Positions 148-58,809 of a stretch of 64,000 nucleotides of DNA are shown here, piece by piece. The first letter of the stretch is position 1. Each line of letters begins with the position of its first letter. Both the position numbers and the translations under genes were made by a program. The notes under the pieces are model-generated. The model was not told where the DNA came from, ran no database searches, and saw nothing but the letters and a program-made list of their open reading frames with translations. The stretch comes from Bacilli bacterium (GTDB lineage: Bacteria; Bacillota_I; Bacilli_A; ML615J-28; CAG-313), in contig JBGVCU010000042.1 of the NCBI GenBank assembly GCA_045119035.1, positions 3,984-67,983 on the forward strand, given 5' to 3'.

Positions 148-915
148 ATGATTAAAATTATTAAAGCTATAATATTAGGTATTGTCCAAGGTATTACAGA
201 AGTTTTACCAATCTCATCTTCAGCACATAATGCATTAATTCATTACTTTATTTATGATACATCAATAAATTTAACAAACGAAATATTCCTACACTTTGCT
301 TCACTACTTGCTCTTATAATTTTTATGAGAAAAGATATTTTTAATATAATTAGAAAAATATTTTGTAAAGATTTTAAATATATAATATCAATTATTATAG
401 GATCAATACCAGCACTGATTGTCTATTTATTATTTAACAAATATATAAAATCAATACTTACAAACATTACTTTAATAGGATTCTTCTTAATTATTACTAG
501 CTTGATTTTAATTTTTATTTATTCATTGTTTAATAATTCTAATAAAAAAATTATATCTAAAACTGATTCTTTATTTATTGGTTTTTGTCAAAGTATTGCT
601 TTAATACCTGGTATTTCAAGAAGTGGGATGACATTATACGGAGGTTTACTTAAAGGTATTAACTATAAAGAAACAATTAAATTTTCACTCTTTTTATTTC
701 TTGTCGCAAGTAGTGGTTCTTTAATATTAGAATATAAAGAAATTGCTAGTATTGATTTAAATTTATTTAGTATTATTACTTTTATTACTACATTTTTCTT
801 TACTTTAATTTCTTTACATTTAATTGTAAATAAGATTAAAAGAAAACATTTTTTATATTTTTCTTTATATACATTTCTACTAGGAATCATAGTCATTATT
901 TTTACAATTAGGTAA
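148..915 (+). CDS. uppP: Undecaprenyl-diphosphate phosphatase (BacA/UppP family)
   Basis: GIVQGITEVLPISSSAH and ALIPGISRSGMT signature motifs; multiple hydrophobic segments; GGTGA SD. Confidence 0.92.
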   Translation: MIKIIKAIILGIVQGITEVLPISSSAHNALIHYFIYDTSINLTNEIFLHFASLLALIIFMRKDIFNIIRKIFCKDFKYIISIIIGSIPALIVYLLFNKYIKSILTNITLIGFFLIITSLILIFIYSLFNNSNKKIISKTDSLFIGFCQSIALIPGISRSGMTLYGGLLKGINYKETIKFSLFLFLVASSGSLILEYKEIASIDLNLFSIITFITTFFFTLISLHLIVNKIKRKHFLYFSLYTFLLGIIVIIFTIR

Positions 916-972
916 AGACACTTTCAACATTTAATATATTGTATATTATATAGTGAAAGTGAGGTGTAGTTA

Positions 973-1386
973 ATGGCTTGTGGTACAAATACATATAATA
1001 TGACAACTATTAATACAAAAAATACAACAAATGAAAATACAATTGCTGGATTACTTAAAAGAATAGATACATTACAAAGAAATGCAATTGCAACTAATGC
1101 ATTAAGTACTTGTGATAATTGTTTAGTTAATTCAATGTTCAATACTAAACCTATTAATATCTATTGTGGTTGCGATTTATTTACAGCAACATTCAATGGA
1201 GTAGATTATACATTATTTAGAGTTGAAGAAGTAAGAGGTAACGATACTGTTGTTCTTAGATTATTAGAAGTAGTAAATGATGTTGTTACTTGTACAGCAA
1301 ATACTATTATAGTAAATATTAATGCAATATTTGCTATTCAATGTAATGCTCCTATTAATTGTACAATTAGTTGTTTTCAAGCGTAA
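973..1386 (+). CDS. Cys-rich protein resembling CotY/CotZ spore coat (crust) family
   Basis: Pattern I..LL..I..LQ..A...CD.C ... FRVEEV.G...V.LRLL ... T...I.VNI..IFAIQC..P, recalled from CotY/CotZ; GAGGTG SD; not confirmed by HMM. Confidence 0.55.
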   Translation: MACGTNTYNMTTINTKNTTNENTIAGLLKRIDTLQRNAIATNALSTCDNCLVNSMFNTKPINIYCGCDLFTATFNGVDYTLFRVEEVRGNDTVVLRLLEVVNDVVTCTANTIIVNINAIFAIQCNAPINCTISCFQA

Positions 1387-1542
1387 CTATATATTTTATT
1401 AACGCTGAATAGAAAATCAAATATTCAGCGTTAATCAACCCTTATTTTTAAAGTCAGAGAAATCTGGCTTTTAAATTTTATTTATTATTTTAAATAAAAA
1501 AAATAATTAAATGTGTTATAATAGTATAAAGGAGATGATTAT

Positions 1543-1902
1543 ATGAAACTAATGAAAAAATTTACTTTTGTATTAATTTTAACTTTATCTTTACTTACTC
1601 TTGTTAGCTGTGGTATGGAATCATACGCTAAAAAAATTAATAAAAGAGCAGAAAAAGATGATCACATTACTTATAGCGAAGTTGTAAAAAAACTTGGTGA
1701 AGATAAAATCATCGATTTAACAACTGGATCTGATGCTTATGCTAGTGGTATTATTATTAAAGTTAAAGGTGTAACTTCAGTTGAAGAATTAAAACAAAAA
1801 ATTAATGATGGTGAAACTTTAAAAGGTATTAGAGTTATCATTGCTTTAGGAAAAGCAGTATCTGCTGAATATACTGAAATTGATATGAGTAGTGTAAAAT
1901 AA
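1543..1902 (+). CDS. Small lipoprotein, unknown function
   Basis: Signal peptide with LVSC lipobox; AGGAG SD; followed by a strong terminator. Confidence 0.65.
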   Translation: MKLMKKFTFVLILTLSLLTLVSCGMESYAKKINKRAEKDDHITYSEVVKKLGEDKIIDLTTGSDAYASGIIIKVKGVTSVEELKQKINDGETLKGIRVIIALGKAVSAEYTEIDMSSVK

Positions 1903-4575: not shown

Positions 4576-4821
4576 TTATACCACACTTTGATTTAAAAGT
4601 AAAATATTATTTACATTTAATAATGATATACAGTATGTTATATTATCACTTACAATAACAATACTATCTTGATTAATTCTTTTTATTTTACCAAATAATG
4701 TAGAACCATTTTTTAATATAATTAAATATTTTTTATTTACTTGTAGATTATTATAAATATTGATACATTTTCTCTCATTTATTATATAAGGACTATTAAT
4801 AAACAATAATGGTTTTTCCAA
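4576..4821 (-). CDS. Small protein resembling spore coat protein CotO (KPLLFI N-terminus, Sm-like C-terminus)
   Basis: N-terminal EKPLLFINSP resembles the CotO KPL(L/M)YI.QP motif; C-terminal LKNG..L.GKI..I...I.I.....I.L..V..I beta pattern; GGTGA SD then TTG at 4821. Confidence 0.45.
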   Translation of the reverse strand: MEKPLLFINSPYIINERKCINIYNNLQVNKKYLIILKNGSTLFGKIKRINQDSIVIVSDNITYCISLLNVNNILLLNQSVV

Positions 4822-4925
4822 TTTTCTCACCAATATTATATTATAAAATATTTAATTTTTTATACATACTAAATAAAAACTGTATTTAGCATTGTTATAT
4901 AATAAAAAGGAGATGAGAATTATTT

Positions 4926-6332
4926 ATGTTTATATTAATATCTACTCTATTTTTAATAATTATTTTATCATTATTAATATATTTAAAATTTATTAAAAAT
5001 TATGATTTTAATAAATTTAATAAATTAATCAAAATATTATCTATAATATATGTATGTATATCTTTCGTAAATTTATTTTTACCTGATGGTTTAGCAAGAG
5101 AATATACAGAAGCTGAATTAAAAAATAAAAAAGCTATATATGAAAATATTATAAGATGGTTACAAAATAGTGCCTTTTTAATTATTCCTACAATTGCTTA
5201 TTTTGATAATAAAATACTAAATAAAATAGCTAGTTATATTGTTTTACCATTTAATATTATTTATATGTTTTCTTATAATGTAATTATTAAATCTCTTACA
5301 GATCCAGCTGGTAGAGGACTTAATACAATAAGATTTATGAGTAATGAAGCAAAAGCTTTTATGATAAATGAAACATTTAGAACCATTATATTTAGTTTAA
5401 TTATTTATTTAGCACTTTTTATTTTATTAATTCAAACATTTAAAAATATTAATGATTTAAAATTTTCTAAAAAAGAAATTAAAAACTTTATTCTAGTATC
5501 ATTAGGTATCATTGTTTTATCAATGCCTTGTTATGCTCCTCAATATCTTATTGGATATACAAGCATTATATTTAAACGTTTTACACTTTCACATCTTGCT
5601 ATCATTATTTTATTAGTTATCGAAACAATTTTTATATATAATGTTTTCAAAAATAAGCCAAAAGAAATAAAAATTATTTTATTAATATTGATGAGTTTAA
5701 GTTTATTGTTTCAATTTAATCAAGTATTTACCGGAACAAATGAAATTAATTTTAAAAAATTTCCATTTCAACTATGTAATATTGGATCATATTTAATTCT
5801 TATTACACTAATAACAAAAAATAAACATTTATTTAATTTCTGTATCGTGGTAAATGTTGTAGGAGCAACAATTGCGATGATTATTTTAGATGTTAATAAT
5901 GTTGGTATAGGATATTATTGGAATATACATTATATTTTAGAACATGGAAAAGTAATTATTATTCCAATTTTATGTTTATTATTTAAAATATTTGAACCAC
6001 TTACAAAAAAAGATGTTAAAGATGTTCTTATTGGATTTAGTTCATATTTTACATTTGTTTTATTATTTGGTACAATTGCTAACGGAATATATCATCATCT
6101 TGATAATTCATATTTTAAAGTTAATTTCTTATTTATGTTTTTAAAAGAAGAAACAACGGAAATTGTAGGATTTGTAGAACCATTATTCGATATTAAAATA
6201 AAATTAGGTATATTTGAATTATATCCTATTATTCAATTACTAGTATTTATAATATTTACTTTATTATGTGTAGGATGCTTCTATTTACTATATGTTTTAT
6301 CAAATAAGAAAAAAGAATTAAATACAAATTAA
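4926..6332 (+). CDS. Polytopic membrane protein, YwaF/TMEM164-like
   Basis: About 12 hydrophobic segments; FPFQLCNI and HYILEH motifs; FKVNFLFM. Confidence 0.65.
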   Translation: MFILISTLFLIIILSLLIYLKFIKNYDFNKFNKLIKILSIIYVCISFVNLFLPDGLAREYTEAELKNKKAIYENIIRWLQNSAFLIIPTIAYFDNKILNKIASYIVLPFNIIYMFSYNVIIKSLTDPAGRGLNTIRFMSNEAKAFMINETFRTIIFSLIIYLALFILLIQTFKNINDLKFSKKEIKNFILVSLGIIVLSMPCYAPQYLIGYTSIIFKRFTLSHLAIIILLVIETIFIYNVFKNKPKEIKIILLILMSLSLLFQFNQVFTGTNEINFKKFPFQLCNIGSYLILITLITKNKHLFNFCIVVNVVGATIAMIILDVNNVGIGYYWNIHYILEHGKVIIIPILCLLFKIFEPLTKKDVKDVLIGFSSYFTFVLLFGTIANGIYHHLDNSYFKVNFLFMFLKEETTEIVGFVEPLFDIKIKLGIFELYPIIQLLVFIIFTLLCVGCFYLLYVLSNKKKELNTN

Positions 6333-28575: not shown

Positions 28576-28647
28576 GAGCGGGTGATGGGAATCGAACCCA
28601 CGTAGTCAGCTTGGAAGGCTGAAGTTCTACCGTTGAACTACACCCGC
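28574..28647 (-). tRNA. tRNA-Gly(TCC)
   Basis: GCGGGTGTAGTTCAACGGTAGAACTTCAGCCTTCCAAGCTGA...GGTTCGATTCCCATCACCCGCTCCA. Confidence 0.97.
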
Positions 28648-28659
28648 ATTTTATTTAAA

Positions 28660-28736
28660 TGGTCGGGACTGCAGGATTCGAACCTGTGACCCTCTGGTCC
28701 CAAACCAGATGCTCTACCAAGCTGAGCTAAGTCCCG
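28660..28736 (-). tRNA. tRNA-Pro(TGG)
   Basis: CGGGACTTAGCTCAGCTTGGTAGAGCATCTGGTTTGGGACCAGA...GGTTCGAATCCTGCAGTCCCGACCA. Confidence 0.97.
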
Positions 28737-28753
28737 TACTTAAATGCTTATAT

Positions 28754-28783
28754 ATTATAGCATACTTAATATAATATTGTCAA
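28754..28783 (-). promoter_or_regulatory. sigmaA promoter for tRNA-Pro/Gly
   Basis: TTGACA-18-TATAAT with extended TG. Confidence 0.75.
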
Positions 28784-28877: not shown

Positions 28878-28886
28878 ATATAAAAA

Positions 28887-43599: not shown

Positions 43600-43953
43600 T
43601 TAGCAATTAGTTACATTTGTTTCACTACATGTGTAATTAGGGATGAATTCAGCTTGTTTAATATGATGATGCACTACTTCAGTATGATAGTTATGAATAT
43701 AAGGTTGTTTTTGAACATGATAAGTATTAACAACGTTCTTACTTGATGTTACAATTGGTGGTAATGTTTCATATGTAGTATTACCATAATTCATATTTCC
43801 CACTACTTGATTCATACAAGGATTTACTGGTGCATATTGAGTATTTTGTTGATTACTTTGAGCTTGATAACAATTTGTTGTAGTTTGTGTATTTTGATTA
43901 AACGCACACATATAACCTTGATTAAAAGTACAATTAGTTCTCTTTTGTCTCAT
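43600..43953 (-). CDS. Gln/Asn/His-rich protein with CotD-like C-terminus
   Basis: PPIVTSSKNVVNTYHVQKQPYIHNYHTEVVHHHIKQAEFIPNYTCSETNV parallels the CotD pattern PIVHP...VPHIHP.HTT.VNH.H...HY.P.T.S.V; GGAGGTG SD. Confidence 0.6.
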   Translation of the reverse strand: MRQKRTNCTFNQGYMCAFNQNTQTTTNCYQAQSNQQNTQYAPVNPCMNQVVGNMNYGNTTYETLPPIVTSSKNVVNTYHVQKQPYIHNYHTEVVHHHIKQAEFIPNYTCSETNVTNC

Positions 43954-44076
43954 TATTTCACCTCCCATTTATAAAATATTACTTTTTAAGGGAAATGCTT
44001 ATTCTAAATGCCTATACATAAAAAATAAATATTTTCATAAAATATTATTAGAAAATTTATATAGGAGAAAATTATT

Positions 44077-44673
44077 ATGTATTTAACACCTGTTGTAATA
44101 GAATCAACTTCAAAAGGTGAAAGAAGTTATGATATTTATTCAAGATTATTAAAAGACCGAATTATTGTAATTTTCGGTGAAATTACAGATGAACTAAGCG
44201 CAAGCATCATTTCCCAAATGTTATTTCTAGCAAGTAAATCTGATGATGATATTTATTTATATATTAACTCACCTGGAGGAAGTGTTTCAAGTGGACTTGC
44301 AATTTATGATGTTATGAATTATATTAAACCAAATGTAAACACAATCGGAATTGGACTATGCGCATCTATGGGAGCATTTCTTTTATCAAGTGGAGAAAAA
44401 GGGAAAAGATATGCACTTCCTAATACTAAAATTATGATTCATCAACCACTTGGAGGAGCAAAAGGACAAGCAACTGATATTATGATTGTGGCTGAGGAAA
44501 TTTTAAGAATTAAAAAACAATTAAATCATATTTTATCCAAAAATACTAATCAGTCAATAGAAAAAATCACGTCCGATTCTGAACGTGATTATTATATGAC
44601 TTGTATGGAAGCAATTAATTATGGTTTAATTGATGAGATTCTTTCTTCAAGTCAAACCATTTCGGATAAGTAG
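44077..44673 (+). CDS. clpP: ATP-dependent Clp protease proteolytic subunit
   Basis: [24 protein letters not shown] (Ser), IHQP (His), ERD (Asp). Confidence 0.97.
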
Positions 44674-45484
44674 TAAGAACTATTTCTTCTTTTGTTACTG
44701 GATGAATAAATTTTAAATAATAACTATGAAGATGGAGAATTCCTTCTTCATTTTTTGTTCCATATAAACTATCACCAATAATAGAATGTTTTAAATAATT
44801 AAAATGTAATCTTAATTGATGTGTTTTCCCTGTATGAAGAGTTGCTTCTACTACTGATTTATCTTCATTATGATCTAATATGATATAGCTTGTTTTACTA
44901 TTAATAAAATCAAATGTAACTTCTCTTTTAATAGAATCATCACTAATTCTTCTAATACCTGTTAAAAGTTCTCCACTTTTTTCAAGATTACCTTCTACTT
45001 CAAGTAAATATTTCTTTTCTAAAATTGCTTTTTTCATTAAATCATTAATATAAGAATTTTTAGCAAGAACTACAATTCCAGATGTCATTGCATCAAGTCT
45101 ATTTACAAAATGAATATTTGATAAAATACCATTTCTTTTATAATAGCTCATAACATAGTTTGCTAAAGAATTTTTATAATGTTTAATAGTTGGAATACAA
45201 CATATATTTGGTTCTTTATTAATAATTAACAAATAACTATCTTCATATATTATTTCAAAATCACCTTTAATAGATACTATATTTTCTCCACTATCAGTAA
45301 CAGGTAATACTATTTCTAATAAGTCCCCTTTTTTTAATAAGTAACTTTTATTCACATTTTGATTATTCACTATAAAACGACCATTACCGTTTGAAATATT
45401 TGTGATTAAATTACTTGAAAGATCAGTTTCTTCTAAGAAATCTCTTAAAGTAATTTCTTCTTTAATTTCATATCGTTTAATCAT
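44615..45484 (-). CDS. RluA-family pseudouridine synthase (YjbO-like)
   Basis: [31 protein letters not shown] and LHSY motifs. Confidence 0.93.
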
Positions 45485-46265
45485 TTATATCTCCAATAAA
45501 TGCTTTTTTAACACGATTAAAAAATGAATGATTTTTATGAGTTAATAGTTTAACTGATTTATTTGAAAGTTTAACAACAAGTTTTTCAATAGATTCAACA
45601 TATGGATCTAAATTATCAACAGTAATAATATATTTATCATTTTTTCTAGGTTTTAAAACTAATGTATTATTATTACTTAAAATCATTGATGAACCAATTG
45701 TTTTATATACACGATTGTTAATACTTGCAATTTCCGTTAACTGCATAACAGGTAAATTAATATCAACAATAGCTCCACCTAAACTTTTATTATAAGCAGT
45801 TGAACCACTTGGAGTAGAAATACAAAAACCAGTTCCTCTAAAAGTTTCAAAATGATAATCATTAATAAAAGTATCAAGAACCATTGTTTTACTACCTGAA
45901 ATAATTGTTACTTCATTAAATGCATAACCATTATATTCGAGTTCATTTGTTTTTAAATGATATTCAATTAATGGTAAATTACAAATATCAAATTCATTTT
46001 TTTGGATATTAATTAATAGTTGCTCAAAATTTTCTTCAAGAAAATCTGTATAAAAACCTAATTTTCCAAAATTTATACCAATCAATTTTATATTATCTAT
46101 TTTATTTATAAATTCGTGTACTGTTTTTAAAACAGTTCCATCGCCACCAAATACAAAAACATATTCAGGGTTATTATCATCATAAATAAAATTGTATTTT
46201 TCTAATAATGATGTAAATTCAGCAATTTTACTTACTGAATGGTGACATCTATATGTATATTTCAT
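45477..46265 (-). CDS. ppnK: NAD kinase
   Basis: GGDGT, GKLGF, FNE and GFCISTPSGSTAYNKSLGG motifs. Confidence 0.95.
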   Translation of the reverse strand: MKYTYRCHHSVSKIAEFTSLLEKYNFIYDDNNPEYVFVFGGDGTVLKTVHEFINKIDNIKLIGINFGKLGFYTDFLEENFEQLLINIQKNEFDICNLPLIEYHLKTNELEYNGYAFNEVTIISGSKTMVLDTFINDYHFETFRGTGFCISTPSGSTAYNKSLGGAIVDINLPVMQLTEIASINNRVYKTIGSSMILSNNNTLVLKPRKNDKYIITVDNLDPYVESIEKLVVKLSNKSVKLLTHKNHSFFNRVKKAFIGDIND

Positions 46266-46266
46266 A

Positions 46267-46947
46267 CTACCACCTTTTAGCGTTGTTAATTAAAATTTCA
46301 CTTTCCATTGGATCATTTTCTAGTAAATTGTCATTGTCACATCCTAGTGCTACAAGTTCATCATGAATGGCTGACATTTCCATATCTAAAGTTCTAGCCG
46401 CAAAACTTGCTGTAATTAGTCTTTCTTTTAATGTTTGTGGAACTTGTTTTTTAAATTTATATTTTAATGAATGTTCAATACTAGCCCAGAAATGCATCGC
46501 GTGTGTTCTTATTTGGAATTCTAAAAGAACCGGAATTTGTCCATTAATTGTTTCTACATGATATAAAACTATTAAATGTAAAGATCTATATCCACTTGGT
46601 TTAGGCTTTTTAATATAGTCTCTTTCTTCTTTTAATTCAATATCATTTCTTTGTAAAATTAAATCTCTTACTTTATAAACATCATTTAAATATTTACAAG
46701 TTATTCTTAATCCACCTATATCATGAATTTTTTCATCAATTAATTCAAGTGGTACATCCATTCTTTTAGCTTTATCCATGATGCTGTCAGGCGTTTTAAT
46801 ACGACCTGAAATAATTTCAATTGGACAGCTTATTCCATTTAAGTAATGTTGTTTTTTTATACCTTCCATTTTTAAAATGAACCCTTCAACCGCAAGTTCA
46901 TAAGGTTGTAAAAATTGATCCCATCTAAATGTTTCTTTATTAATCAT
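46267..46947 (-). CDS. yjbM: Small alarmone (p)ppGpp synthetase, YjbM/RelQ type
   Basis: GRIK..SI..K, DIGGLRI, DYI..PK.SGYRS.H and EFQIRT.AM.FWA..EH.L.YK motifs; yjb synteny. Confidence 0.92.
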   Translation of the reverse strand: MINKETFRWDQFLQPYELAVEGFILKMEGIKKQHYLNGISCPIEIISGRIKTPDSIMDKAKRMDVPLELIDEKIHDIGGLRITCKYLNDVYKVRDLILQRNDIELKEERDYIKKPKPSGYRSLHLIVLYHVETINGQIPVLLEFQIRTHAMHFWASIEHSLKYKFKKQVPQTLKERLITASFAARTLDMEMSAIHDELVALGCDNDNLLENDPMESEILINNAKRW

Positions 46948-47072
46948 ATTATTATTCTCATTTCTTTTTTTATATTTCTATTTTATCATATAATGAACTT
47001 TTTTTCAAGCAAAAAAGTGTAAGTTAAGTATAATATAAAAAAACAGTTCAAATAAATGAACTGTTTATTAGA

Positions 47073-47648
47073 CTATAACTTTCTTCTTAAAGCAGTATAT
47101 GCTCTTTTCATTTTATGATCAGCTTTTTTATATTGAACCCCAAAACTCTTTACTGTTTCTACAAATTCTCTTTTTCCTGTTTCATATACATTTGATTGGA
47201 AAATTAATTCATAATCAATTGTATCAACATACTTACATTTATCAATGCTTAGTACTCCACTTTTATATGGGAAAGAGATTCTAAATGTTGCTAAAGACAT
47301 ATAATTAACAATCTTTTGACCTTTAATAATTTCTTCTAAATCTTTTCTAATTGGTTCGCTTGGAATAATACCATTTTCACAAAATTCATTAAATTGTTCT
47401 TTTGTAATAAACTCATTTAAAACATGAGCAACATAACCTTTTTTTCTCTTTAAAGTCATTTCATAATTTGAGTTTTCTCTTTTACGAACACGAAGCCCAA
47501 TCTCAGATGCTTTTAGCGTAAAACGGTCTGTATCAAAATAATAGTTTATTTGTAAATTTCCACGATGTTCTGTAAAATGTGTCATTAAATCGACATATTC
47601 TTTTTTTGTTAACATGGTTTTAAATTCGTATTCAAATTTATTTGACAT
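47073..47648 (-). CDS. CYTH-domain protein (YjbK-like)
   Basis: EYEFK, Q.NYYFDT, LRVR, DYELIF and KMKR motifs; start at ATG 47648 behind GGAGGG. Confidence 0.88.
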   Translation of the reverse strand: MSNKFEYEFKTMLTKKEYVDLMTHFTEHRGNLQINYYFDTDRFTLKASEIGLRVRKRENSNYEMTLKRKKGYVAHVLNEFITKEQFNEFCENGIIPSEPIRKDLEEIIKGQKIVNYMSLATFRISFPYKSGVLSIDKCKYVDTIDYELIFQSNVYETGKREFVETVKSFGVQYKKADHKMKRAYTALRRKL

Positions 47649-47751
47649 AATTCCCTCCATATAGAGCAACATTTTTATCAATTTATATTATACGAATTTT
47701 ATATTATTATGCAAGAAATTTGCAAAAAAAAGAGGATTTTTAATCCTCCTT

Positions 47752-48180
47752 TTATTCTTCATCCATTTCATCATCATCTTCTTCATCATCAAGACGATTA
47801 AATAAATTGAAACATTCTCTATTTCTTAATTCTCTTGGTAAAAAGATTGTGATGTCTTCATTGTTATAACCTACTTGTAATTCATTTTCATTAATAATAA
47901 TAGGTCTTTTTAAAACACTTGGATTTTCAATGATAAACTCAACTAAACTACTTGTACTCATACTATCCGGATCAAGTTTCTTTTCTTTGAACACTTTTGA
48001 ACGAGTTGAAATAATATCTTCAAATCCATTTTCGCTATTTGCTAGCATTTTAAAGATATCTTCTTTACTAAGTTTAATACTGAAAATATTTTTTTCTGAA
48101 TATGGAATTTTATATTGATCAAACCATTTTTTTGCTTTTCTACAAGAAGCACAAGATGGTGTAGTGTAAATTTGTATCAA
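47752..48180 (-). CDS. spx: Transcriptional regulator Spx
   Basis: YTTPSCASCRKAKKW, P.VLKRPII and GYN.EDI.IFLPR motifs; TTG start. Confidence 0.93.
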   Translation of the reverse strand: MIQIYTTPSCASCRKAKKWFDQYKIPYSEKNIFSIKLSKEDIFKMLANSENGFEDIISTRSKVFKEKKLDPDSMSTSSLVEFIIENPSVLKRPIIINENELQVGYNNEDITIFLPRELRNRECFNLFNRLDDEEDDDEMDEE

Positions 48181-50321: not shown

Positions 50322-50519
50322 AAAATCACCCCATTTTATATTATATATTATACCATAAAATATTTTTTTGTCAAAAAATAGTTTTTTTAAATTTTTAAAT
50401 ATACAATATAATATTATTATTTAATTTGTGTATTTTTTACTTTATACATAATATAGTAATATCTATTTATTAATTTCATATAAATTGACTATTTAATGAA
50501 TATTTGATATAATGTTTAA

Positions 50520-50750
50520 AACATATGATTTAGAAAGAGTACATTTAGGTAAATTTTTAGAGAAGGCTTGGTTGGTGAAAAAGCTCAAATGAACTATTTG
50601 GAATGGGTCTAATGATGTGAAAAGAGGAAATGCTTTTCCGTATTATCCTGCGTTAAAGGAAAATGAGGGTATATATAATATATACTAAATTAAGGTGGCA
50701 CCACGAAATTATCGTCCTTATGGAAATTAGTTCCATAAGGCTTTTTTTAT
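50520..50750 (+). promoter_or_regulatory. T-box leader (Trp)
   Basis: AGAGA/GGUGAA stem I motifs, GAA-UGG specifier, AAGGUGGCACCACG, terminator ccttatggaa...ttccataagg + U7; TTGACT-17-TATAAT at 50485-50513. Confidence 0.93.
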
Positions 50751-50762: not shown

Positions 50763-51758
50763 ATGAAAACAATCGTATCTGGTATTCAACCAACTGGTAA
50801 CTTAACACTTGGAAATTATTTAGGAGCTATTAAACAATTTGTAGATTTACAAAACACATTAGATGATGCAGTTTTTTATATTTTTATTGCTGACTTACAC
50901 GCTATTACTGTTCCTAAAGTTCCTTCAGAACTTAGAAAAAATATTAAAGAACTTGCTGCACTATATCTTGCAGCAGGACTTAATCCTGAAAAGGTTAATC
51001 TATTTATTCAATCAGAAGTAAGAGAACATGCTGAACTTGGATATGCTTTACAAACAATCACTTATATTGGTGAACTTGAAAGAATGACACAATTTAAAGA
51101 TAAAAAAGTTAAACAAGTAAATGGTGTTTCAACTGCACTTCTTACATATCCCGTATTAATGGCTGGAGATATTCTTCTATATAATGCAGATTATGTTCCT
51201 GTTGGAGTTGACCAAAAACAACATTTAGAATTAACTCGTGATTTAGCAGAAAGATTTAATAATCGCTATTCTGAAACATTTAAAATCCCTGAACCACTTC
51301 TTGTTAAAAATGGTTCTAAAGTTATGAGTTTAACTGATCCAACAAAGAAAATGTCAAAATCTGATCCAAATGAAAAATCAGCTATTTACATTCTTGATCC
51401 AAAAGAAGTTATAAGAAAGAAAATAGCATCAGCTGTAACAGACTCTGAAACTTGTGTAAAATATGATCCTGCAAATAAACCTGGTATTTCAAACTTATTA
51501 ACTATTATGTCTGCATGTACTAATAGATCTATTCCAGAATTAGAAAATGAATTTAAAGATAGCAATTATGGTACATTTAAACAAGCTGTTGCTGATAGTG
51601 TAATAAGTGTATTAGAACCTATTCAAAATAGATTCAAAGAATATATTAATTCAAGCGAACTTGATGAAATCTTAAATAAAGGTCGCGATAATGCATCATT
51701 TGTTGCAAATAAAATGATTAAAAAAGTATATCGTAAAATTGGATTAGGTAGAAAATAG
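50763..51758 (+). CDS. trpS: Tryptophanyl-tRNA synthetase
   Basis: SGIQPTG.LTLGNY, YPVLMAGDILLY, VPVG.DQKQH and KKMSKS motifs. Confidence 0.98.
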   Translation: MKTIVSGIQPTGNLTLGNYLGAIKQFVDLQNTLDDAVFYIFIADLHAITVPKVPSELRKNIKELAALYLAAGLNPEKVNLFIQSEVREHAELGYALQTITYIGELERMTQFKDKKVKQVNGVSTALLTYPVLMAGDILLYNADYVPVGVDQKQHLELTRDLAERFNNRYSETFKIPEPLLVKNGSKVMSLTDPTKKMSKSDPNEKSAIYILDPKEVIRKKIASAVTDSETCVKYDPANKPGISNLLTIMSACTNRSIPELENEFKDSNYGTFKQAVADSVISVLEPIQNRFKEYINSSELDEILNKGRDNASFVANKMIKKVYRKIGLGRK

Positions 51759-51768: not shown

Positions 51769-52386
51769 ATGGCGGTAACAATTATCGGAATTGCAGGAGG
51801 AACTGCATCAGGAAAAACAACAATTGCAAAAAAACTATATGCTACAACATCACAAGTAGGTAGTGTTGCCATGCTTAGAATGGATGATTATTATAAAATT
51901 ACAGATCATCTTACTTTAGAAGAACGTCGTCAAATAAATTTTGACCATCCTGATTCATATGATGTTGATTTATTTATTAAACATTTAGAAATGTTAAAAA
52001 ATGGATTAGATATTGAAAAACCAATTTATGATTTTGTTGTTTCTAATAGAACTAAAGAAACAGAAACAATTAAATCAAGTAGTGTAATTATCGTTGAAGG
52101 AATTTTATTATTTGCAATTCCAGAATTACTAAAAAAATTTGATATCAAAATTTTTGTAGAAACACCAGATGATATTCGTTTTATTAGAAGATTAAAACGT
52201 GATATGAGAGATCGTGGAAGAAGTATTGAATCTGTTGTAAACCAATATTTAACAACAGTTAGACCAATGCATGAAACATTTGTTGAACCATCAAAAAAAT
52301 ACGCTGATTTAATTATTCCTGAAGGTGGACATAATCAAATAGCTATTGACTTTGTTGAAACAAAAATACTACAATTATTAAAATAA
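51769..52386 (+). CDS. udk: Uridine kinase
   Basis: GIAGGTASGKT, D.YYK, NFDHP, IIVEGI and R..RD..RGR motifs. Confidence 0.96.
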   Translation: MAVTIIGIAGGTASGKTTIAKKLYATTSQVGSVAMLRMDDYYKITDHLTLEERRQINFDHPDSYDVDLFIKHLEMLKNGLDIEKPIYDFVVSNRTKETETIKSSSVIIVEGILLFAIPELLKKFDIKIFVETPDDIRFIRRLKRDMRDRGRSIESVVNQYLTTVRPMHETFVEPSKKYADLIIPEGGHNQIAIDFVETKILQLLK

Positions 52387-52436: not shown

Positions 52437-53564
52437 GTGATAAATATTAAAGAATTAATTAAATATAGAAGACATCTTCATAAATATCCAGAAATTGGAT
52501 TTGAAACAACAAATACTATTAATTTTATTATTAATGAAATAAATAATATTGATTATAACCAAAATAAAATTAAATTACTAATTAATAAAATAAATAATAA
52601 TTTAATAGTAACCTTATCAACAAAAAATTCAAACATATTAGGTTTTAGAGCCGATATTGATGCTTTAGAAATAAAAGAAACAAATAATATTTCATATAAA
52701 TCAACAAACAATTACATGCATGCATGTGGACATGACGCTCATACCGCAATCTCTTTAAGAGTCATAACTTATCTATTAGAAAATCCTTCTACATTAAATG
52801 GTACTGTAAGATTTATATTTCAAAATGCTGAAGAAGGGCCAAATGAAGGTGGAGCATTTCATTTAATTGAAAATGAATTAATAAAAGAAATCACATCAAT
52901 ATTCGCTCTTCATGTAAATAGTGAATTAGAACCATTTACTATTCATTATAGATATAATGAAATAATGGCTCAAAGTAATATGTTTAAAATTGAATTATTT
53001 GGTAAAAGTTCTCATATTACTAGATTTAAAGAAGGAATTGATGTATTAAAAATAGGATTTAAAATTTATAATAAAATAATGAATTTAACTAAGAAAGACT
53101 TAATTTATATTGGTAAATTTAATAGTGGAGTATCTAGTAATATTGTTTCTGAATATACAAAAATAGAAGGTTCAATAAGAACCTTCCATTTACAAAATTA
53201 TAGATATATATATAAGAAAATTGGACAAATTATAAAAAGATATTCCAAAAATAACAAATATAAAATTAGTTATAATAATGGATATCCTCCTGTAATAAAT
53301 AATAAGAAATTAACTGATCTACTTATTAATTGTTCTAATAATCTAAATATTAATATTAAATACTTGAAAAAACCATTTCTTTTTTCTGATGATTTTTCAA
53401 GATATAGTGTAAATTCACAAATTTGTTATTTTTTTATTGGAACAAAATTAAATAAAAATACACCACTACATTCAAGTAATTTTACGATTAATGAAGATGC
53501 GTTAAAGACGGGATTTGATATATTTATAGAATTAATTAAAAACTATCCTTTTAAATATGTTTAA
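52437..53564 (+). CDS. M20D amidohydrolase (N-acetyl-diaminopimelate deacetylase-like), highly AT-drifted
   Basis: RRHLH..PE, RADIDAL, MHACGHD, FQ.AEEG, ALH, DDFS and LH motifs; start uncertain (GTG 52437 or ATT 52446). Confidence 0.85.
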   Translation: MINIKELIKYRRHLHKYPEIGFETTNTINFIINEINNIDYNQNKIKLLINKINNNLIVTLSTKNSNILGFRADIDALEIKETNNISYKSTNNYMHACGHDAHTAISLRVITYLLENPSTLNGTVRFIFQNAEEGPNEGGAFHLIENELIKEITSIFALHVNSELEPFTIHYRYNEIMAQSNMFKIELFGKSSHITRFKEGIDVLKIGFKIYNKIMNLTKKDLIYIGKFNSGVSSNIVSEYTKIEGSIRTFHLQNYRYIYKKIGQIIKRYSKNNKYKISYNNGYPPVINNKKLTDLLINCSNNLNINIKYLKKPFLFSDDFSRYSVNSQICYFFIGTKLNKNTPLHSSNFTINEDALKTGFDIFIELIKNYPFKYV

Positions 53565-54777
53565 TTAAATAATAGTTCTTCTTACCACGTCTAATAATAG
53601 TATAAATATTTCCAATTGCGTTTTCTTTAGAAATAACACTTTCTAAATCTTTATTTTGAACTCCATTTACAAGTACTCCACCACCTGAAACAAATTCTCT
53701 TGCTTCACGTTTAGATTTTGCTGCACCTGCTTGAATTAATGCATCTAAAATATTTAAGTCTTCTTTAACTTCAATTGTAGGTACTCCTTGGAATCCCATA
53801 TTGATTTCTTCGACTGTTAAGTTTCCAACTTTACCACTAAATAAAGCTTCTGAAATAGCTACTGCTTTATTATATTCTTCTTCACCATGTAAGAATGTAA
53901 TAACAGCTTTAGCTAAAGCTTTATGAGGTTTTCTTAGATGTGCTTCTGTTTCAAGAGTTTTTTCTAAATCTTCAATTTCTTCTTTTGATAAGAAAGTAAG
54001 TTTCTTTAAGTAGTCAATTACTTTAACATCTTCTACATTGATTAAGAATTGATACATTGTATAACTTGATGTTTTATTTTTATCAAGCCAAATAGCTCCA
54101 CCTTCACTCTTACCGAATTTAGTACCATCAGCTTTTGTAATAAGTGGCATTGTAAATGCATAAGCTTCTTTTCCTAATTTTTTTCTAATTAGTTCAATAC
54201 CAGCAGTAATATTACCCCATTGGTCTTGACCAGCTACTTGCATTACACAATTTTTAGTTTGATATAAATGTAAGAAGTCAAGTGCTTGCATAATCATATA
54301 AGAAAATTCTGTATATGTAATTCCACTATCAAGTCTTCTACGTACGATATCTTTATTTAACATATAGTTGATATTAAAGAATTTACCAAAATCTCTTAAG
54401 AAATCAATAAAGTTAATATCTTTACACCAATCATAGTTATTAACAACTTCACAATCAAAAATTCTAGTTACTTGTTCTTTTAAGCAATTAAAATTATGAT
54501 CTACTTGTTCTTTTGTAATCATTGGACGTTCACTACTAGGTTTTGGATCTCCAATTAATCCTGTTGCTCCACCAACAAGTAAAATAGGATGATGTCCTGC
54601 TTGTTTTAAACGTGTAGCAATTAAAAATGATGAAAAATGTCCAATATGTAAACTATCCCCAGTAGGGTCAGTTCCAATATAGAATGTTAATTTTTCATTA
54701 TTTAATTTTTCTTCAAGTTCTGGGTGACTCATATCATTAATAAGGCCACGCCATTTTAATTCTTCAAATAAAGTCAT
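53551..54777 (-). CDS. tyrS: Tyrosyl-tRNA synthetase
   Basis: GTDPTGDSLHIGH, EFSY..MQA.D, G.DQWGNI, KFGKS and C-terminal S4 domain. Confidence 0.98.
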   Translation of the reverse strand: MTLFEELKWRGLINDMSHPELEEKLNNEKLTFYIGTDPTGDSLHIGHFSSFLIATRLKQAGHHPILLVGGATGLIGDPKPSSERPMITKEQVDHNFNCLKEQVTRIFDCEVVNNYDWCKDINFIDFLRDFGKFFNINYMLNKDIVRRRLDSGITYTEFSYMIMQALDFLHLYQTKNCVMQVAGQDQWGNITAGIELIRKKLGKEAYAFTMPLITKADGTKFGKSEGGAIWLDKNKTSSYTMYQFLINVEDVKVIDYLKKLTFLSKEEIEDLEKTLETEAHLRKPHKALAKAVITFLHGEEEYNKAVAISEALFSGKVGNLTVEEINMGFQGVPTIEVKEDLNILDALIQAGAAKSKREAREFVSGGGVLVNGVQNKDLESVISKENAIGNIYTIIRRGKKNYYLIKHI

Positions 54778-54810
54778 ATTATCAAATCCTCTCTTTTAAA
54801 ATTTAAATTA

Positions 54811-54990
54811 AAAAGTCCTTAGATAAAAGAAAATAATCTTTAAATCTAAGGACGAAATTTTATTCCGCGGTACCACCTTAGTTCTAAGTATAAACTTAGC
54901 ACTTTCATATTTAATTGTACCTTGGTAATTCATTTATTAACTTGGATAACCTTTCAGCAACCGGTTATCTTCCTAAATGTCCTATTAATA
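54811..54990 (-). promoter_or_regulatory. T-box leader (Tyr), directly downstream of the ccpA stop codon
   Basis: GAAGA/GCUGAA motifs, GAAU-UAC specifier, AAGGUGGUACCGCG, terminator gtccttagat...atctaaggac + U-run. Confidence 0.9.
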
Positions 54991-54992
54991 AA

Positions 54993-56006
54993 CTACTTAG
55001 TAGAATCACGCCAAATAATCTTATAATCGATTATTTTCTTTAATTCATGATCTTCTACATCTTCTGTTGTTTCCATTAATTCAGTTAAAAGGTCCATTGC
55101 TTTATTACCAATTTCATAAATTGGAATTTGAATTGATGTTAAGCGTGGACGTGCAAGTAATGCATATCTTGTATCTTGGAATCCAATTACTTGAACATCA
55201 TTTGGAACACTTAAACCTTTTTCAGCTACGATATTCATAAATGAAACAGCCATTGAATCACGTACAACAATAGCAACATCAGGATGATTAGAATTTAACA
55301 TATTTCTAAATTCATCTTCATTGATTTCTGTTGTACCATGAGCACGATAGATTTTTGCTTCTAGTCCTGCTTCATTCATAGCTTGAGTATAACCCTCAAT
55401 TTTTAATTCATTAACAATATATTTTCTTTTTGTAGTAACTAACCAAATTTCTTTATTACCTTTTTCAATCATTTGTTTTGTAACATCGTAAGCAGCAGTT
55501 TTATAGTCGATTGTTACATATGGTAAACCTTTTTCAGCACCATTTGTGTTAGTTAAAATTACAGGTATATTTAAATTTGCTAATAAGTCAAATGACCCTC
55601 TTGTGATTTCATCGTTTACATATAAAACTCCGTCAACACCTGAAGCCATAACATTTCCTAATGTTTCTTTTTCAAGAGCTAACGCTTGTTCATCTGTAGG
55701 ACTACTATCATTAATAAATAATCTTAATAGATATCCACGTCTAGTTGCGCAGTCAGCAATACCGTTAACCATTTCTGCTACTGATGAACGATTTAAACGA
55801 GGAACAACGACTGCAACAGTGGTAGATTTTGAACTAGCTAATCCTTTTGCGTTTAAATTTGGTTTATACCCAAGTTCTTTAATAATTCTTTCAATTTTTT
55901 CCTTAGTGGCTGGTTTTACTTTTTCAGGATGATTTAATACACGTGAAACAGTTGCGAGTGAAACACCAGCAGCACCAGCGACATCATATATTTTAATCTG
56001 ATTCAT
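54993..56006 (-). CDS. ccpA: LacI-family regulator, CcpA-like
   Basis: IYDVA..AGVS.ATVSRVLN, Y.PN..A.GLAS, RP.LTSI..P.YEIG..AM.LL; Bacillus-like tyrS-ccpA-murC neighbourhood. Confidence 0.8.
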   Translation of the reverse strand: MNQIKIYDVAGAAGVSLATVSRVLNHPEKVKPATKEKIERIIKELGYKPNLNAKGLASSKSTTVAVVVPRLNRSSVAEMVNGIADCATRRGYLLRLFINDSSPTDEQALALEKETLGNVMASGVDGVLYVNDEITRGSFDLLANLNIPVILTNTNGAEKGLPYVTIDYKTAAYDVTKQMIEKGNKEIWLVTTKRKYIVNELKIEGYTQAMNEAGLEAKIYRAHGTTEINEDEFRNMLNSNHPDVAIVVRDSMAVSFMNIVAEKGLSVPNDVQVIGFQDTRYALLARPRLTSIQIPIYEIGNKAMDLLTELMETTEDVEDHELKKIIDYKIIWRDSTK

Positions 56007-56098
56007 AAAATGCCTCCTTTTTTAAATTTTATTATTCCTCCTATATCAGTATATTAATTATACCACATTTTCATTTTATTTTCAAGCATTTTCATAAT

Positions 56099-57484
56099 TT
56101 ATTTTTGAAATTCATTATCCATATTAATAAATTGAATATTTAATTGTTTCTTTAAAAAACTTATATGATCTTTAAAGCTCCACATAGAGCGATATTCTAT
56201 TGAATATTGTGTTGCAATCCATGGCCATAATTCACCTGGAATACCCCATTTGTTAACATCTCTTTCAATTTCTTCGTCTAATATTTCTACTGCAAGTAAT
56301 AATTCACTATATACTTCTGCAAGAAGTGGTCTTACTTCATTATATCTAGCAATAACTTTATCAACGAACTTTTGATCATTAAATAATAATTTATATAATG
56401 GATTATTATCTTTAAGCCACATCTTTGAATTTTGATATCCTTCATACATATTGCTGTTTTCATTTCTACCAACAACACCTAGTGCAATATCAAAATCCCA
56501 TACAGGACCAGCTTTTAACATACCATCAGTAAACACAAAATAAACACTAGTTTGAACTGCATCAACATTTTTAAATAGCTCATTTACTAAATAATAATCA
56601 ATTAAAGAATCTACATCAATTAATGATTCATAATCTTTTTTATTTCGAATAGAATCAAATACATTATCAACAAATTCTTTAATATATTTACATCTTTCTT
56701 TAGTAGCATCTTCATCTTCAGGATATTTAAATGCAAAATATAATCCATTTGATTCAAAGAATGATTCATCTTTTACAAGACCATCAGCTAAAATACGATC
56801 TAGAAAATCTAGTTCCATTAAATATGATGGATTGGCATCAAAATCATCTTGTTCAATATCAACTCTACCTTTACCAGTTTGCATTTGTTCACATAGTAAA
56901 TATAATCCAAGATATTCCCCATTAAATTCAACTTCAACAAAAATACTTGAAGGTTGGAAATCTAAATTATCAAGTTTGTTTGCAGTTAAATAAGCTAAAT
57001 AATTTCTCATATGAGATTTATCAAAATAATTAGCTAAAAGCACCCAACTTTTTGATTTTTCAAGTCCAAATAAACTTTGTTTTTCATCAAACTTAATTCT
57101 AAAAGCTTTCTTAGGAGCATCAAGTGTTGAATTACCTCTTAAACGAATTCCCATTGCAGCTTCTTCAAATATAATATTTTCTGTATTAGGTTGTTCTACA
57201 ATTTTTAAATTACCTTTTATATAGTCTTCCTTATTATATGGAAATACTTTGTCCTTTGTATTGATAATTATTTTTGGTACTTCATTTTCTTCACTAACAA
57301 AGTTCTTAATATTTCTTGCTTTTGAAGGAACTTCAGGAGTAGGATTTTCTGGTTCATCTATTCCTGGACCCGAAGTGCCTGGATCTTCTGGCGGATTAAC
57401 ACCTGGTTGTTCTATCATCGTACAACCAACTAGTAAAAATAATAAAAATATTACTATTATTATAAAATATTGTTTCTTTTTCAT
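56099..57484 (-). CDS. CotH-family kinase lipoprotein with Pro-rich linker
   Basis: LVGC lipobox; RLRGNST, KK..RIKF, WVLLANY.D, NGEY.GLY.L.E, N.D and PVWDFD motifs. Confidence 0.9.
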   Translation of the reverse strand: MKKKQYFIIIVIFLLFLLVGCTMIEQPGVNPPEDPGTSGPGIDEPENPTPEVPSKARNIKNFVSEENEVPKIIINTKDKVFPYNKEDYIKGNLKIVEQPNTENIIFEEAAMGIRLRGNSTLDAPKKAFRIKFDEKQSLFGLEKSKSWVLLANYFDKSHMRNYLAYLTANKLDNLDFQPSSIFVEVEFNGEYLGLYLLCEQMQTGKGRVDIEQDDFDANPSYLMELDFLDRILADGLVKDESFFESNGLYFAFKYPEDEDATKERCKYIKEFVDNVFDSIRNKKDYESLIDVDSLIDYYLVNELFKNVDAVQTSVYFVFTDGMLKAGPVWDFDIALGVVGRNENSNMYEGYQNSKMWLKDNNPLYKLLFNDQKFVDKVIARYNEVRPLLAEVYSELLLAVEILDEEIERDVNKWGIPGELWPWIATQYSIEYRSMWSFKDHISFLKKQLNIQFINMDNEFQK

Positions 57485-57546
57485 ATTATATACTCCTTAA
57501 CATATATATTATATCAAAGAAATTTTTTTCTTTCAAATAATATTAT

Positions 57547-58809
57547 TTATTTCACTCTTTTCAAATATGAATTAAAACTTCCAGCACCTAGAAAAATATA
57601 AATACTTTTATTTTGATCATCATTAATCACTAATTCATTAAATTTTTCTTTATTTAATTTTTTAAACTTTCTTAATTTCTTATCAATCTTTTTTTGTAAT
57701 AAAATATCTTGTTTTTCTCTTGAAATAAAGACATCATTAATATAAACTTCATCAAATTTACTTAAAGCTTTTTTAAATTCTCTTATAAACTTAATAGTTC
57801 TAGAATACGTATGTGGTTCAAAAAAAACAATATATTTATATTCAGGATATTCTTGTTTAAGTGAATCATAAAAAGCTTTTATTTCTGTTGGATGATGAGC
57901 ATAATCGCTAATAAATATTTTATTATTAAATATCCATTTTTCTTTTCTTCTTTTAGGAAGTAAATAATTATTTAGGTTATAACTTAAATCTATATCTTTA
58001 TAAAATGAATTAATTATAGAGTAACACGCAAGAAAATTATATATCATATGTTTTCCTTTAAATGGTAAATAAGTTCTTTTACTATTAATCAATACTTCAT
58101 ATCCATTTATATCTTTATTAATTATTTTGCATCTAAAATCATTATTTTTATTAAATCCAAATGTAATTTTATTAGGATGTTTAATTTTTCTACATAAAGC
58201 ATTATCACCATTTATAACTAAATATTTGGATTGTTTACTAAAAGTGTTAAATGAATTAAACAATTGTTTTTTACTTTTATAGTAATCTGGATGATCTAAT
58301 TCAATATTATTAATAACAGAAATAGTAGGATGGTATTTTAAAAAATTATCTTTATATTCACATGCTTCGAAAATCAAAATTTCACTATCATGTCCACAAC
58401 CTATTCCATCACCTTTAATAACTGAAGGATTTATTTCATTTAACATAAATGAGAGTAAACTAGTAGTTGTTGTTTTCCCGTGTGTTCCACTGATCGCTAT
58501 TTTCGTTTGAACATTAATTTGATCAATAAAATCTGAATAATAAAAATATGGATAATTTCTTTTTATTACTTCACGTGTTTCAATATTATCTTGCCCATTT
58601 CCTAAAATATACACATAATTATCTTTAATATTATTAATATCATAATTAAAATATTGAATATTTTTATTATCTAAAATATCATCTGTAAAATATTTGCTCT
58701 GTGTATCAGATCCTATAACATTATGTCCTTTATCTTTTAAATAACAAGCTAAACTAGAGCAACCTGTTCCTTTTATTCCTATAATATAATAATTAATAAA
58801 AATCACCAC
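57547..58809 (-). CDS. murC: UDP-N-acetylmuramate--L-alanine ligase, compact and AT-drifted
   Basis: GIKGTG.SSLA, GSD, GTHGKTTT, EACEY, NIELDHPDYY, DYAHHPTEI, EPHTYSRT and LGAG motifs; start uncertain (GTG or ATT 58797). Confidence 0.92.
   Translation of the reverse strand: MVIFINYYIIGIKGTGCSSLACYLKDKGHNVIGSDTQSKYFTDDILDNKNIQYFNYDINNIKDNYVYILGNGQDNIETREVIKRNYPYFYYSDFIDQINVQTKIAISGTHGKTTTTSLLSFMLNEINPSVIKGDGIGCGHDSEILIFEACEYKDNFLKYHPTISVINNIELDHPDYYKSKKQLFNSFNTFSKQSKYLVINGDNALCRKIKHPNKITFGFNKNNDFRCKIINKDINGYEVLINSKRTYLPFKGKHMIYNFLACYSIINSFYKDIDLSYNLNNYLLPKRRKEKWIFNNKIFISDYAHHPTEIKAFYDSLKQEYPEYKYIVFFEPHTYSRTIKFIREFKKALSKFDEVYINDVFISREKQDILLQKKIDKKLRKFKKLNKEKFNELVINDDQNKSIYIFLGAGSFNSYLKRVK

Follow-up and report, generated by a model that had tools for sequence, protein, structure and literature searches.

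A window of 64,000 nucleotides (contig C42:3984-67983) from the metagenome-assembled genome (MAG) of a Bacilli bacterium was analysed, and the spore coat and peptidoglycan genes found on it were followed through the rest of the genome and through the order to which it belongs. The organism probably combines a reduced endospore programme with a minimal, division-only wall kit, in which peptidoglycan would be synthesized at septa and in the forespore, and the two gene sets would be kept or lost together. The MAG comprises 1.72 Mb in 69 contigs (estimated completeness 96.7%, contamination 0.19%), and no 16S rRNA gene was present in the assembly. When PheS was compared with 185,579 species genomes, the closest matches were MAGs, namely a Bacilli bacterium (73%), Acholeplasmatales UBA11505 (71%), Erysipelotrichaceae SIG222 (70%) and Izemoplasmatales (64%), and true Bacillus PheS ranked after these at about 62-64%. 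The source is an uncultured gut bacterium whose order (class Bacilli) is interleaved with wall-less mollicute orders.

The order comparison covered 106 species genomes in two families (49, including the family of this genome, and 57). Genomes with at least 90% completeness and at most 5% contamination were classed as high quality (n=67). This genome is designated G000, other genomes of the order carry G numbers (G016, G040 etc.) and loci of relatives carry L numbers. Profile hidden Markov model (HMM) searches were performed with Pfam and NCBIfam/TIGRFAM models, and wall genes were sought by tblastn with E. coli queries.

Joint retention and loss of spore and wall genes

Spo0A was found in 67/106 genomes of the order (43/49 in the family of this genome and 24/57 in the other family) and a SEDS gene in 60/106, effectively as one copy each. 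Both were present in 56 genomes and neither in 35; 11 genomes, mostly incomplete bins, had Spo0A without SEDS, and the four with SEDS and no Spo0A were 70-86% complete and belong to genera whose other members carry Spo0A. When only the 67 high-quality genomes were counted, 46 had both, 19 had neither, two had Spo0A alone and none had SEDS alone. The genes for the CotZ-like and CotD-like coat proteins described below were present in all 48 high-quality Spo0A-positive genomes and in 0/19 high-quality Spo0A-negative genomes.

Genome G016 of the same family (1.71 Mb, 92% complete), which was examined in its entirety, is without every Mur enzyme, MraY, Ddl, SEDS, both penicillin-binding proteins (PBPs), Spo0A, SpoIVA, SpoIVB, sigma E, G and K, CotH and both coat-like genes; FtsZ, RsmH, SigA and a UppP-like gene are kept. 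Losses were also seen within the genera g24, g29 and g22. Two genomes of genus g22 (G072 and G073, the latter 94% complete) retain Spo0A and the CotZ-like gene with no SEDS match, and Spo0A without a SEDS match was likewise found in G035; these three may be midway through the loss, with the wall synthase as the first component to go. Where the programme is retained, sporulation genes are kept over 13 genera, between which shared proteins have an identity of only about 47-50%. The spore and wall gene sets are heavily reduced, and they are vertically inherited, because gene orders are Bacillus-like and coat genes lie among housekeeping genes, in this genome and also in relatives.

Subtraction of the Spo0A-negative G016 from this genome was too coarse to be used alone (shared proteins about 47% identical, 982/1716 open reading frames (ORFs) unmatched). 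The positive-reference comparison with G040 spanned 49% of the G040 genome, and the large ORFs of the G040-filtered candidate set, judged by eye, were transporters, enzymes and mobile elements.

Sporulation genes

About 40 sporulation genes were found in the genome, all as intact open frames. Matches were obtained for Spo0A_C (134.9 bits), SpoIVA (310 bits), SigG (377.7 bits, over the cut-off of 372), SigK (245 bits) and SigE (305 bits, the best model, under its equivalog cut-off). The spoIIGA gene adjoins sigE-sigG downstream of ftsZ, and spoIVB is located immediately 5' of spo0A in the Bacillus-like order nusB-xseAB-ispA-dxs-spoIVB-spo0A; the order rpsU-yqfC-yqfD-phoH is Bacillus-like as well. 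Spore structure and germination are represented by SpoVAC and SpoVAEb (112 and 103 bits), CwlJ (55 bits), GerQ (115 bits), Gpr (329 bits), YabG (214 bits), YqfD (74 bits) and an alpha/beta-type small acid-soluble spore protein (SASP) that was found by motif only, and peptidoglycan modification by a PdaA-like deacetylase (100 bits), a CwlD-like amidase (127 bits), VanY and two S11 DD-carboxypeptidases (DacB/F-like). CotE with a LysM neighbour, CotJB-CotJC, a YtaF-like protein, YabP, YabQ, a YlmC-type PRC protein, SpoVT, SpoVS, YunB, BofA, SpoIIR and SpoIVB were also found, together with a SpoIIIAH-like gene (50 bits), which stands alone, and a SpoIIQ-like M23 gene. The preliminary description of the window had predicted sporulation and cortex genes for this genome, and these were recovered (Spo0A, SpoIVA, sigma E/G/K, SpoVD/SpoVE-like synthases, CwlD-like, PdaA-like and DacB/F-like enzymes, CwlJ-GerQ). 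It had also named spo0A, the sporulation sigma factors and spoIVA as genes whose absence would mark the set as relics; all of these are present except full-length sigF.

The sigF locus was located in a block at C68:1210-4022 that comprises spoIIAA, spoIIAB, an ORF of 68 codons with sigma region 2 only, spoVAC, spoVAD and spoVAEb. Between spoIIAB and spoVAC, most genera of the family have 150-230 aa in this slot, as against 68-104 in the genera g1 (that of this genome) and g2; the remnant is 68 codons long in this genome and 87 codons long in the sister genome, and the version of G040 has 154 aa with regions 2 and 4 only. A reading that sigF is simply absent was revised on this basis: in most genera the sigF locus retains a shortened sigma factor, and in this genome it retains a stub. 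Sigma F thus seems to be shrinking while SpoIIAA/SpoIIAB and the single SigG-type sigma factor remain intact. One further candidate for SigF was rejected: a divergent sigma-70-family gene at C44:750-1454 (234 aa, 56 bits on SigF) lies among small phage-like ORFs on a 2.7-kb contig, is not SigF, SigE, SigG or SigK by score and is absent from G016.

Wall genes

MurA, B, C, D, E, F and G, MraY, Ddl and MurI were each found once by tblastn (E 2e-46 to 4e-11), and with UppP the predicted lipid II pathway is complete (MurA-G, MraY, Ddl, glutamate racemase and UppP). Two of these genes are in the window, and both had been named correctly in the preliminary description. The undecaprenyl-diphosphate phosphatase gene uppP/bacA, whose product recycles the lipid carrier, is located at 148-915 (+) and matched PF02673 with 192.5 bits; murC, encoding UDP-N-acetylmuramate--L-alanine ligase, is located at 57547-58809 (-) and matched TIGR01082 with 284 bits (tblastn with E. 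coli MurC, E 9e-34), and is gone from G016. A DUF368 gene (undecaprenyl-phosphate translocase-like, C60:43834-44625) and a SpoVB/MurJ-type flippase gene (C60:16021-17499) were found elsewhere in the genome; both are missing from G016, so lipid-carrier recycling genes were lost together with the wall.

The synthases comprise one SEDS protein, one class B PBP and one class A PBP. The SEDS protein scored 378 bits on SpoVE and 369 bits on FtsW, passing the FtsW equivalog cut-off of 337.5, and the class B PBP scored 596 bits on SpoVD, under the SpoVD cut-off. Both are encoded in a split dcw cluster (genes of division and of the wall) with murG, murB and ftsZ. MreB (PF06723) was not found in the genome; it is absent from 104/106 genomes of the order and present in one genus only. 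A tblastn match to MreB on C58 proved to be DnaK. There is no second SEDS protein (RodA), PF01098 giving exactly one match in the genome. The loss of the vegetative elongasome that had been predicted for this lineage was therefore found, and with its mollicute-like PheS neighbours, no MreB and a single SEDS protein the genome is not that of an ordinary walled spore former with a full elongasome. NlpC/P60 hydrolases, sortases and LPXTG substrates were not detected in a screen that consisted of regular expressions and partial Pfam scans only.

Coat genes of the window

The gene at 973-1386 (+) encodes a Cys-rich spore-coat/crust-type protein of 137 aa with 9 Cys. Like CotY/CotZ it is rich in Cys and close to 140 aa in length, and it gave a weak, family-consistent match to PF10612 (23.7 bits, E 6e-5), which is 0.3 bits under the Pfam cut-off of 24. 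Among 21 homologues, 12 matched PF10612 (E<=0.1, best 7.4e-6) and no other plausible family was hit; for the homologue P0041 a precomputed PF10612 match exists. The family alignment contains 31 invariant columns, the Cys pattern among them. The family is small and lineage-restricted (24 clusters among 5.8 billion proteins), and the gene is present in 68/106 genomes of the order with a distribution matching that of Spo0A. In the relative encoding P0028, a gene for an SspI-type SASP (PF14098) lies at L239:2263-2466, 1.5 kb from the CotZ-like gene, and an opposite-strand esterase gene stands in place of the uppP-cotZ pairing.

The gene at 43600-43968 (-) encodes a small His-rich protein with the conserved core PIVT.SKNVVN.YH..KQPYIHNYHTEVVHHHI.Q.E.IPNYTCSE. 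The His-rich core, which carries YIHNYHTEVVHHH, links it to CotD through an intermediate sequence; unlike CotD (PF11122), the protein has a long Q/N-rich N-terminal extension and no direct family match. Neither the window protein nor 18 homologues matched PF11122 directly even at E<=10, and the window protein is also without an NCBIfam match. When a profile of the family was searched against 1.8 billion representatives, P0057 was found with E 2.5e-4, and P0057 in turn scored 25.7 bits on PF11122 (cut-off 22); the tie of the family to CotD is thus transitive. The five closest relatives (L008-L012) have the gene in synteny upstream of pheS; at the corresponding site of the Spo0A-negative G016 the cotD-like gene is missing and pheS borders directly on yjbO. 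This family is also small and lineage-restricted, with 19 clusters among 5.8 billion proteins.

A third coat gene, missed in the preliminary description, was found between ccpA and murC at 56099-57484 (-). It encodes a CotH-family spore-coat protein kinase with a clear match to PF08757 (149.2 bits, cut-off 23.8, covering positions 1-308 of the 322 in the profile) and is missing from G016.

The CotY/Z-like and CotD-like assignments made earlier held up, the former by the family matches of the protein and its homologues, the latter by the link through P0057 to PF11122 and by a distribution that tracks Spo0A; as judged from their sequences, both genes are probably real, divergent members of coat families. 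A third assignment did not. The ORF of 85 codons at 4576-4833 (-), earlier called CotO-like, and its positional counterparts matched no Pfam or NCBIfam family, CotO (PF14153) included, and no homologue was found in the other 105 genomes of the order. A weak resemblance (32% identity over 62 aa) was seen to an ORF of 92 aa at the same position upstream of pncA in L239. Its identity as CotO was not accepted, and the ORF is unsupported as a coat gene. The CotY/Z-like, CotD-like and CotH genes are predicted to belong to the coat layer of the reduced endospore programme.

Adjacency of wall and coat genes

Three wall-precursor genes each have coat genes immediately downstream on the same strand, with gaps of 57-62 bp: uppP before the cotZ-like gene, murC before cotH and murB before cotJB-cotJC. 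The first pairing (57 bp gap in the window) recurs in L241 and L243, where the CotZ-like proteins show 50-54% identity. The order murC-cotH-ccpA-tyrS is kept in L245 and L246 with a spacer of about 55 bp, and in the more distant relative L247 a Mur ligase gene lies about 1 kb from cotH on the opposite strand. The third pairing was found at C37:65944-69936 of G000 and also on contig 7 of G040; the division/wall cluster on C37 runs SEDS, murG, murB, cotJB, cotJC ... ftsZ ... spoIIGA, sigE, sigG. The spacer between murC and cotH bears a conserved extended -10 box (TGATATAAT) of the housekeeping type, and the spacer of each coat gene seems to bear a promoter-like box of its own. The adjacency of wall and coat genes is suggestive; co-transcription, sporulation-specific or otherwise, does not follow from it, and the conserved housekeeping-type box before cotH means that it is no proof of sporulation-specific co-transcription.

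Other genes of the window

The GC content along the window is 22-30%, in line with the very AT-rich composition noted in the preliminary description, and every contig of the genome is within 24-30%. Under translation table 11 long housekeeping ORFs are unbroken and TGA terminates 90/1385 ORFs; TGA is therefore a stop codon, and an alternative code with TGA as Trp was ruled out on the same grounds.

Two Bacillus-like gene orders that had been pointed out earlier were recovered. The genes spx, CYTH (yjbK), yjbM, ppnK and a yjbO-type pseudouridine synthase gene occupy 44615-48180 (-), with the same order on contig 13 of G016, and tyrS-ccpA-murC spans 53551-58809; within the latter, tyrS (TIGR00234, 381 bits) and the gene for a ccpA-like LacI regulator (TIGR01481, 252 bits) at 53551-56006 (-) provide a housekeeping context. 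The gene at 52437-53564 (+), earlier described as a dapL-like M20D hydrolase, is an M20D amidohydrolase gene (TIGR01891, 223.6 bits), and that part of the description stands. The DapL identity is unsupported: the gene lies 3' of a unit composed of a T-box leader at 50516-50722 (+; 109 bits), trpS at 50763-51758 and udk at 51769-52386, with no dap genes as neighbours, and it was classed as a generic M20D amidohydrolase gene.

Between the cotD-like gene and yjbO lies clpP (44077-44673, +); G016 as a whole gave no match to ClpP. Five tRNA genes are clustered at 28577-29052 (-). The CotZ-like gene is closely followed by the C-terminal part of a gene for an ISL3-family transposase (PF01610; 2068-2316, +), and a full-length copy of an ISL3-family transposase is present at C57:127202-128506. 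Seven paralogues of a TMEM164/YwaF-like membrane protein are encoded in the genome, two in the window (4926-6332, +; 23588-24349, -) and five elsewhere (C60:62253-63068, C36:19620-20381, C39:27063-27782, C59:29115-29903 and C21:48881-49651). One of them is located between rsmH and the sole class B PBP gene, the slot expected for ftsL. None of the seven has a counterpart in the wall-less, spore-less G016, and they may form a wall- or spore-linked family.

Interpretation and alternatives

Endospore formation is usually held to need four sporulation sigma factors, the SpoIID/M/P engulfment machine and the SpoIIIA-SpoIIQ channel, and a walled bacterium is generally taken to require different synthase pairs for elongation, for division and for the cortex. 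In the organism described here, the endospore set is made up of Spo0A, the SpoIIAA/SpoIIAB switch, SpoIIR-SpoIIGA-sigma E, one full-length forespore sigma factor of SigG type and sigma K with SpoIVB and BofA; on the structural side it comprises SpoIVA and CotE for morphogenesis of the coat, the SpoVA channel for dipicolinate, SASP with Gpr, and CwlJ-GerQ for germination. The wall kit consists of MurA-G, MraY, Ddl, UppP, a SpoVB/MurJ-type flippase, one SEDS protein, one class B and one class A PBP, DD-carboxypeptidases and CwlD- and PdaA-like enzymes, with no MreB-RodA elongasome. Wall synthesis would be restricted to septa and to the forespore (germ-cell wall and cortex), and vegetative cells would probably have only a thin wall made at the septum. 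The SigG-type sigma factor, held by SpoIIAB, would substitute for the decayed sigma F, and engulfment would proceed without the SpoIID hydrolase, perhaps by a SpoIIQ-like/SpoIIIAH-like zipper. The two sets would be kept or discarded together because the spore needs peptidoglycan.

Several observations weigh against this reading. A full-length sigma F was not found, and there is a single SigF/G-type gene per genome in 49/49 genomes of the family. SpoIID (PF08486) gave no match in this genome, and the five PF08486 matches in the family are unrelated proteins of 588-753 aa, one of them in the Spo0A-negative G016. SpoIIIAE (PF09546) was found in 0/49 family genomes, and no spoIIIA operon was detected by a size-pattern search. 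SpoIIP, SpoIIM and SpoIVFB were not seen among the scanned ORFs, a subset limited to 90-480 aa; crude motif searches for SpoIIP, SpoIIIAA, SpoIIID, SpoIVFB and DpaB were also negative, and a similar motif for SpoIIAB missed a gene that was later found by Pfam. According to Galperin et al. (bioRxiv 10.1101/2022.02.25.481979), no spore former lacks any of the four sporulation sigma factors, SpoIID and SpoIIP seem to be indispensable and the SpoIIIA-SpoIIQ channel is part of a conserved engulfment complex; with sigma F, SpoIID and SpoIIIAE missing from this core, the present gene set is well outside the known range. The joint loss of the two sets could also reflect generally relaxed selection in a host-bound niche and not functional coupling. 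Finally, the organism is uncultured and no spore has been observed.

The preliminary description had proposed that peptidoglycan is kept mainly for the spore cortex. Taken to its limit, this would mean that vegetative cells are effectively wall-less and that the lipid II pathway and the SpoVE/SpoVD-like pair are switched on in sporulation only, for the asymmetric septum, the germ-cell wall and the cortex. We consider this unlikely, although many observations are compatible with it: the coupling of Spo0A and SEDS, with 0/67 high-quality genomes carrying SEDS without Spo0A; the best scores of the sole SEDS protein and class B PBP on the SpoVE and SpoVD models; the missing MreB and RodA; and the missing SpoIID, which would be expected if there were no thick septal wall to thin. 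All identified peptidoglycan-active enzymes are of the sporulation or germination type (CwlD-like, PdaA-like, CwlJ, DacB/F-like), the regular-expression screen gave no NlpC/P60, sortase or LPXTG, and the uppP-cotZ-like, murC-cotH and murB-cotJB-cotJC adjacencies are conserved in relatives. C. difficile also offers a precedent, its dcw-encoded pair of SEDS protein and class B PBP being specialized for sporulation (PMC10693644). However, a class A PBP is present, and in C. difficile such an enzyme drives vegetative division (PMC10693644); the SEDS protein is over the FtsW cut-off (369 vs 337.5 bits) and is encoded in a dcw cluster with murG, murB and ftsZ; the murC-cotH spacer has the housekeeping-type extended -10 box TGATATAAT; the hydrolase screen was by regular expressions and partial Pfam scans only; and joint loss would also be expected from a general loss of environmental hardiness. 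The restriction to the cortex is unproven because the class A PBP, the FtsW-grade SEDS protein and the dcw context fit a thin septal or vegetative wall equally, so that a division-only wall agrees with the data just as well. It is doubtful whether the boldest combination applies, namely that this is the most reduced endospore programme yet seen (one SigG-type forespore sigma factor, held by SpoIIAA/SpoIIAB, in place of the relay from sigma F to sigma G, with neither a SpoIID-type hydrolase nor a SpoIIIA channel) in a cell that grows free of a sacculus, with peptidoglycan only as a spore organelle (sporulation septum, germ-cell wall and cortex) that vanishes with sporulation.

The decay of sigF, of which 68 codons are left in this genome and 87 in the sister genome, and the family-wide absence of SpoIID and SpoIIIAE would equally be expected of a relic, in which no spores are formed now, the sporulation genes are decaying or re-used and the thin wall is purely vegetative. 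Spo0A-positive non-spore-formers are common in Firmicutes (bioRxiv 10.1101/2022.02.25.481979), and at best 'fragile' spores are predicted by Field et al. (PMC10868615). Such a state is nevertheless improbable: the approximately 40 sporulation genes have unbroken reading frames; most telling are those for late spore structure (CotE, CotJB/C, CotZ-like, CotD-like, SpoVAC/D/Eb, Gpr, SASP, CwlJ-GerQ), which have no known role outside the spore and are conserved over the 13 genera at about 47-50% identity of shared proteins; the CotZ-like family keeps its 31 invariant columns; and where the programme is lost, as in G016, the loss is complete and no fragments linger. That sporulation or wall genes were binned from another organism is very hard to credit. 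The assembly is a MAG of 69 contigs, but its contamination is 0.19%, the GC content of every contig is 24-30%, coat and wall genes are on long contigs amid housekeeping genes and the same arrangements were found in independent assemblies and in about 60 related genomes.

Relation to known systems and significance

The broad pattern was published in 2024 by Field, Bowerman and Hugenholtz (PMC10868615), who described the orders ML615J-28, RFN20 and RF39 as mixed, with species that have a thin wall or none and fragile spores or no sporulation, and in which wall loss is reported never to occur without spore loss. The preliminary description therefore went too far in calling this an undescribed system, since that paper already reports the reduction of both gene sets, wall and spore, and their loss together. 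Spo0A is given there for about 90% of CAG-313 and about 50% of CAG-698 genomes, which the frequencies in the two families here (43/49 and 24/57) fit; on this basis the genome was provisionally placed in the GTDB order ML615J-28, family CAG-313. The intermediate lineages of Field et al. and this genome have in common that they are small, host-associated and uncultured and stand between Mollicute orders and Erysipelotrichales, and that they have Spo0A, reduced sporulation and peptidoglycan sets, no sortases, a missing spoIID and joint loss. The two analyses differ in that yabG, yqfD and spoVB were reduced or absent in ML615J-28 in the KEGG orthology (KO) survey of Field et al., whereas YabG, YqfD and a SpoVB-like flippase were found here by HMM. 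In their text and the available part of the supplement there is no mention of MreB, RodA, a single pair of SEDS protein and class B PBP, sigF decay or CotZ-, CotD- or CotH-type genes, and the available supplement has no entries for sigF, mreB, rodA, spoVE or cotZ; to that extent, the degree of reduction of this lineage is not described there.

With the programme of B. subtilis and C. difficile this genome shares Spo0A, SpoIIAA/AB, SpoIIR-SpoIIGA-sigma E, sigma G, sigma K, SpoIVB/BofA, SpoIVA, CotE and SpoVA, as well as SASP/Gpr, cortex modification of the CwlD/PdaA type, CwlJ-GerQ and Bacillus-like gene neighbourhoods. Unlike these species it has no full-length sigma F, SpoIID, SpoIIIAE or MreB, its SpoIIIAH-like gene stands alone, and a single pair of SEDS protein and class B PBP is found in place of separate division, elongation and sporulation pairs. 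The dcw-encoded SpoVE/SpoVD-like pair and the availability of a class A PBP for vegetative septation resemble the non-canonical divisome of C. difficile (Shrestha et al. 2023, PMC10693644). However, C. difficile keeps MreB, a RodA-PBP2 elongasome and a thick wall, in contrast to the one pair and one class A PBP here.

If no spores are formed, the lineage would represent an ordinary stage of genome decay that is already described in outline. If spores are formed, a much smaller working gene set for sporulation would be defined, and the origin of Mollicutes from spore-forming Firmicutes would become testable, including the spore as the last use of peptidoglycan; the finding would also bear on the passage of common uncultured gut bacteria from host to host.

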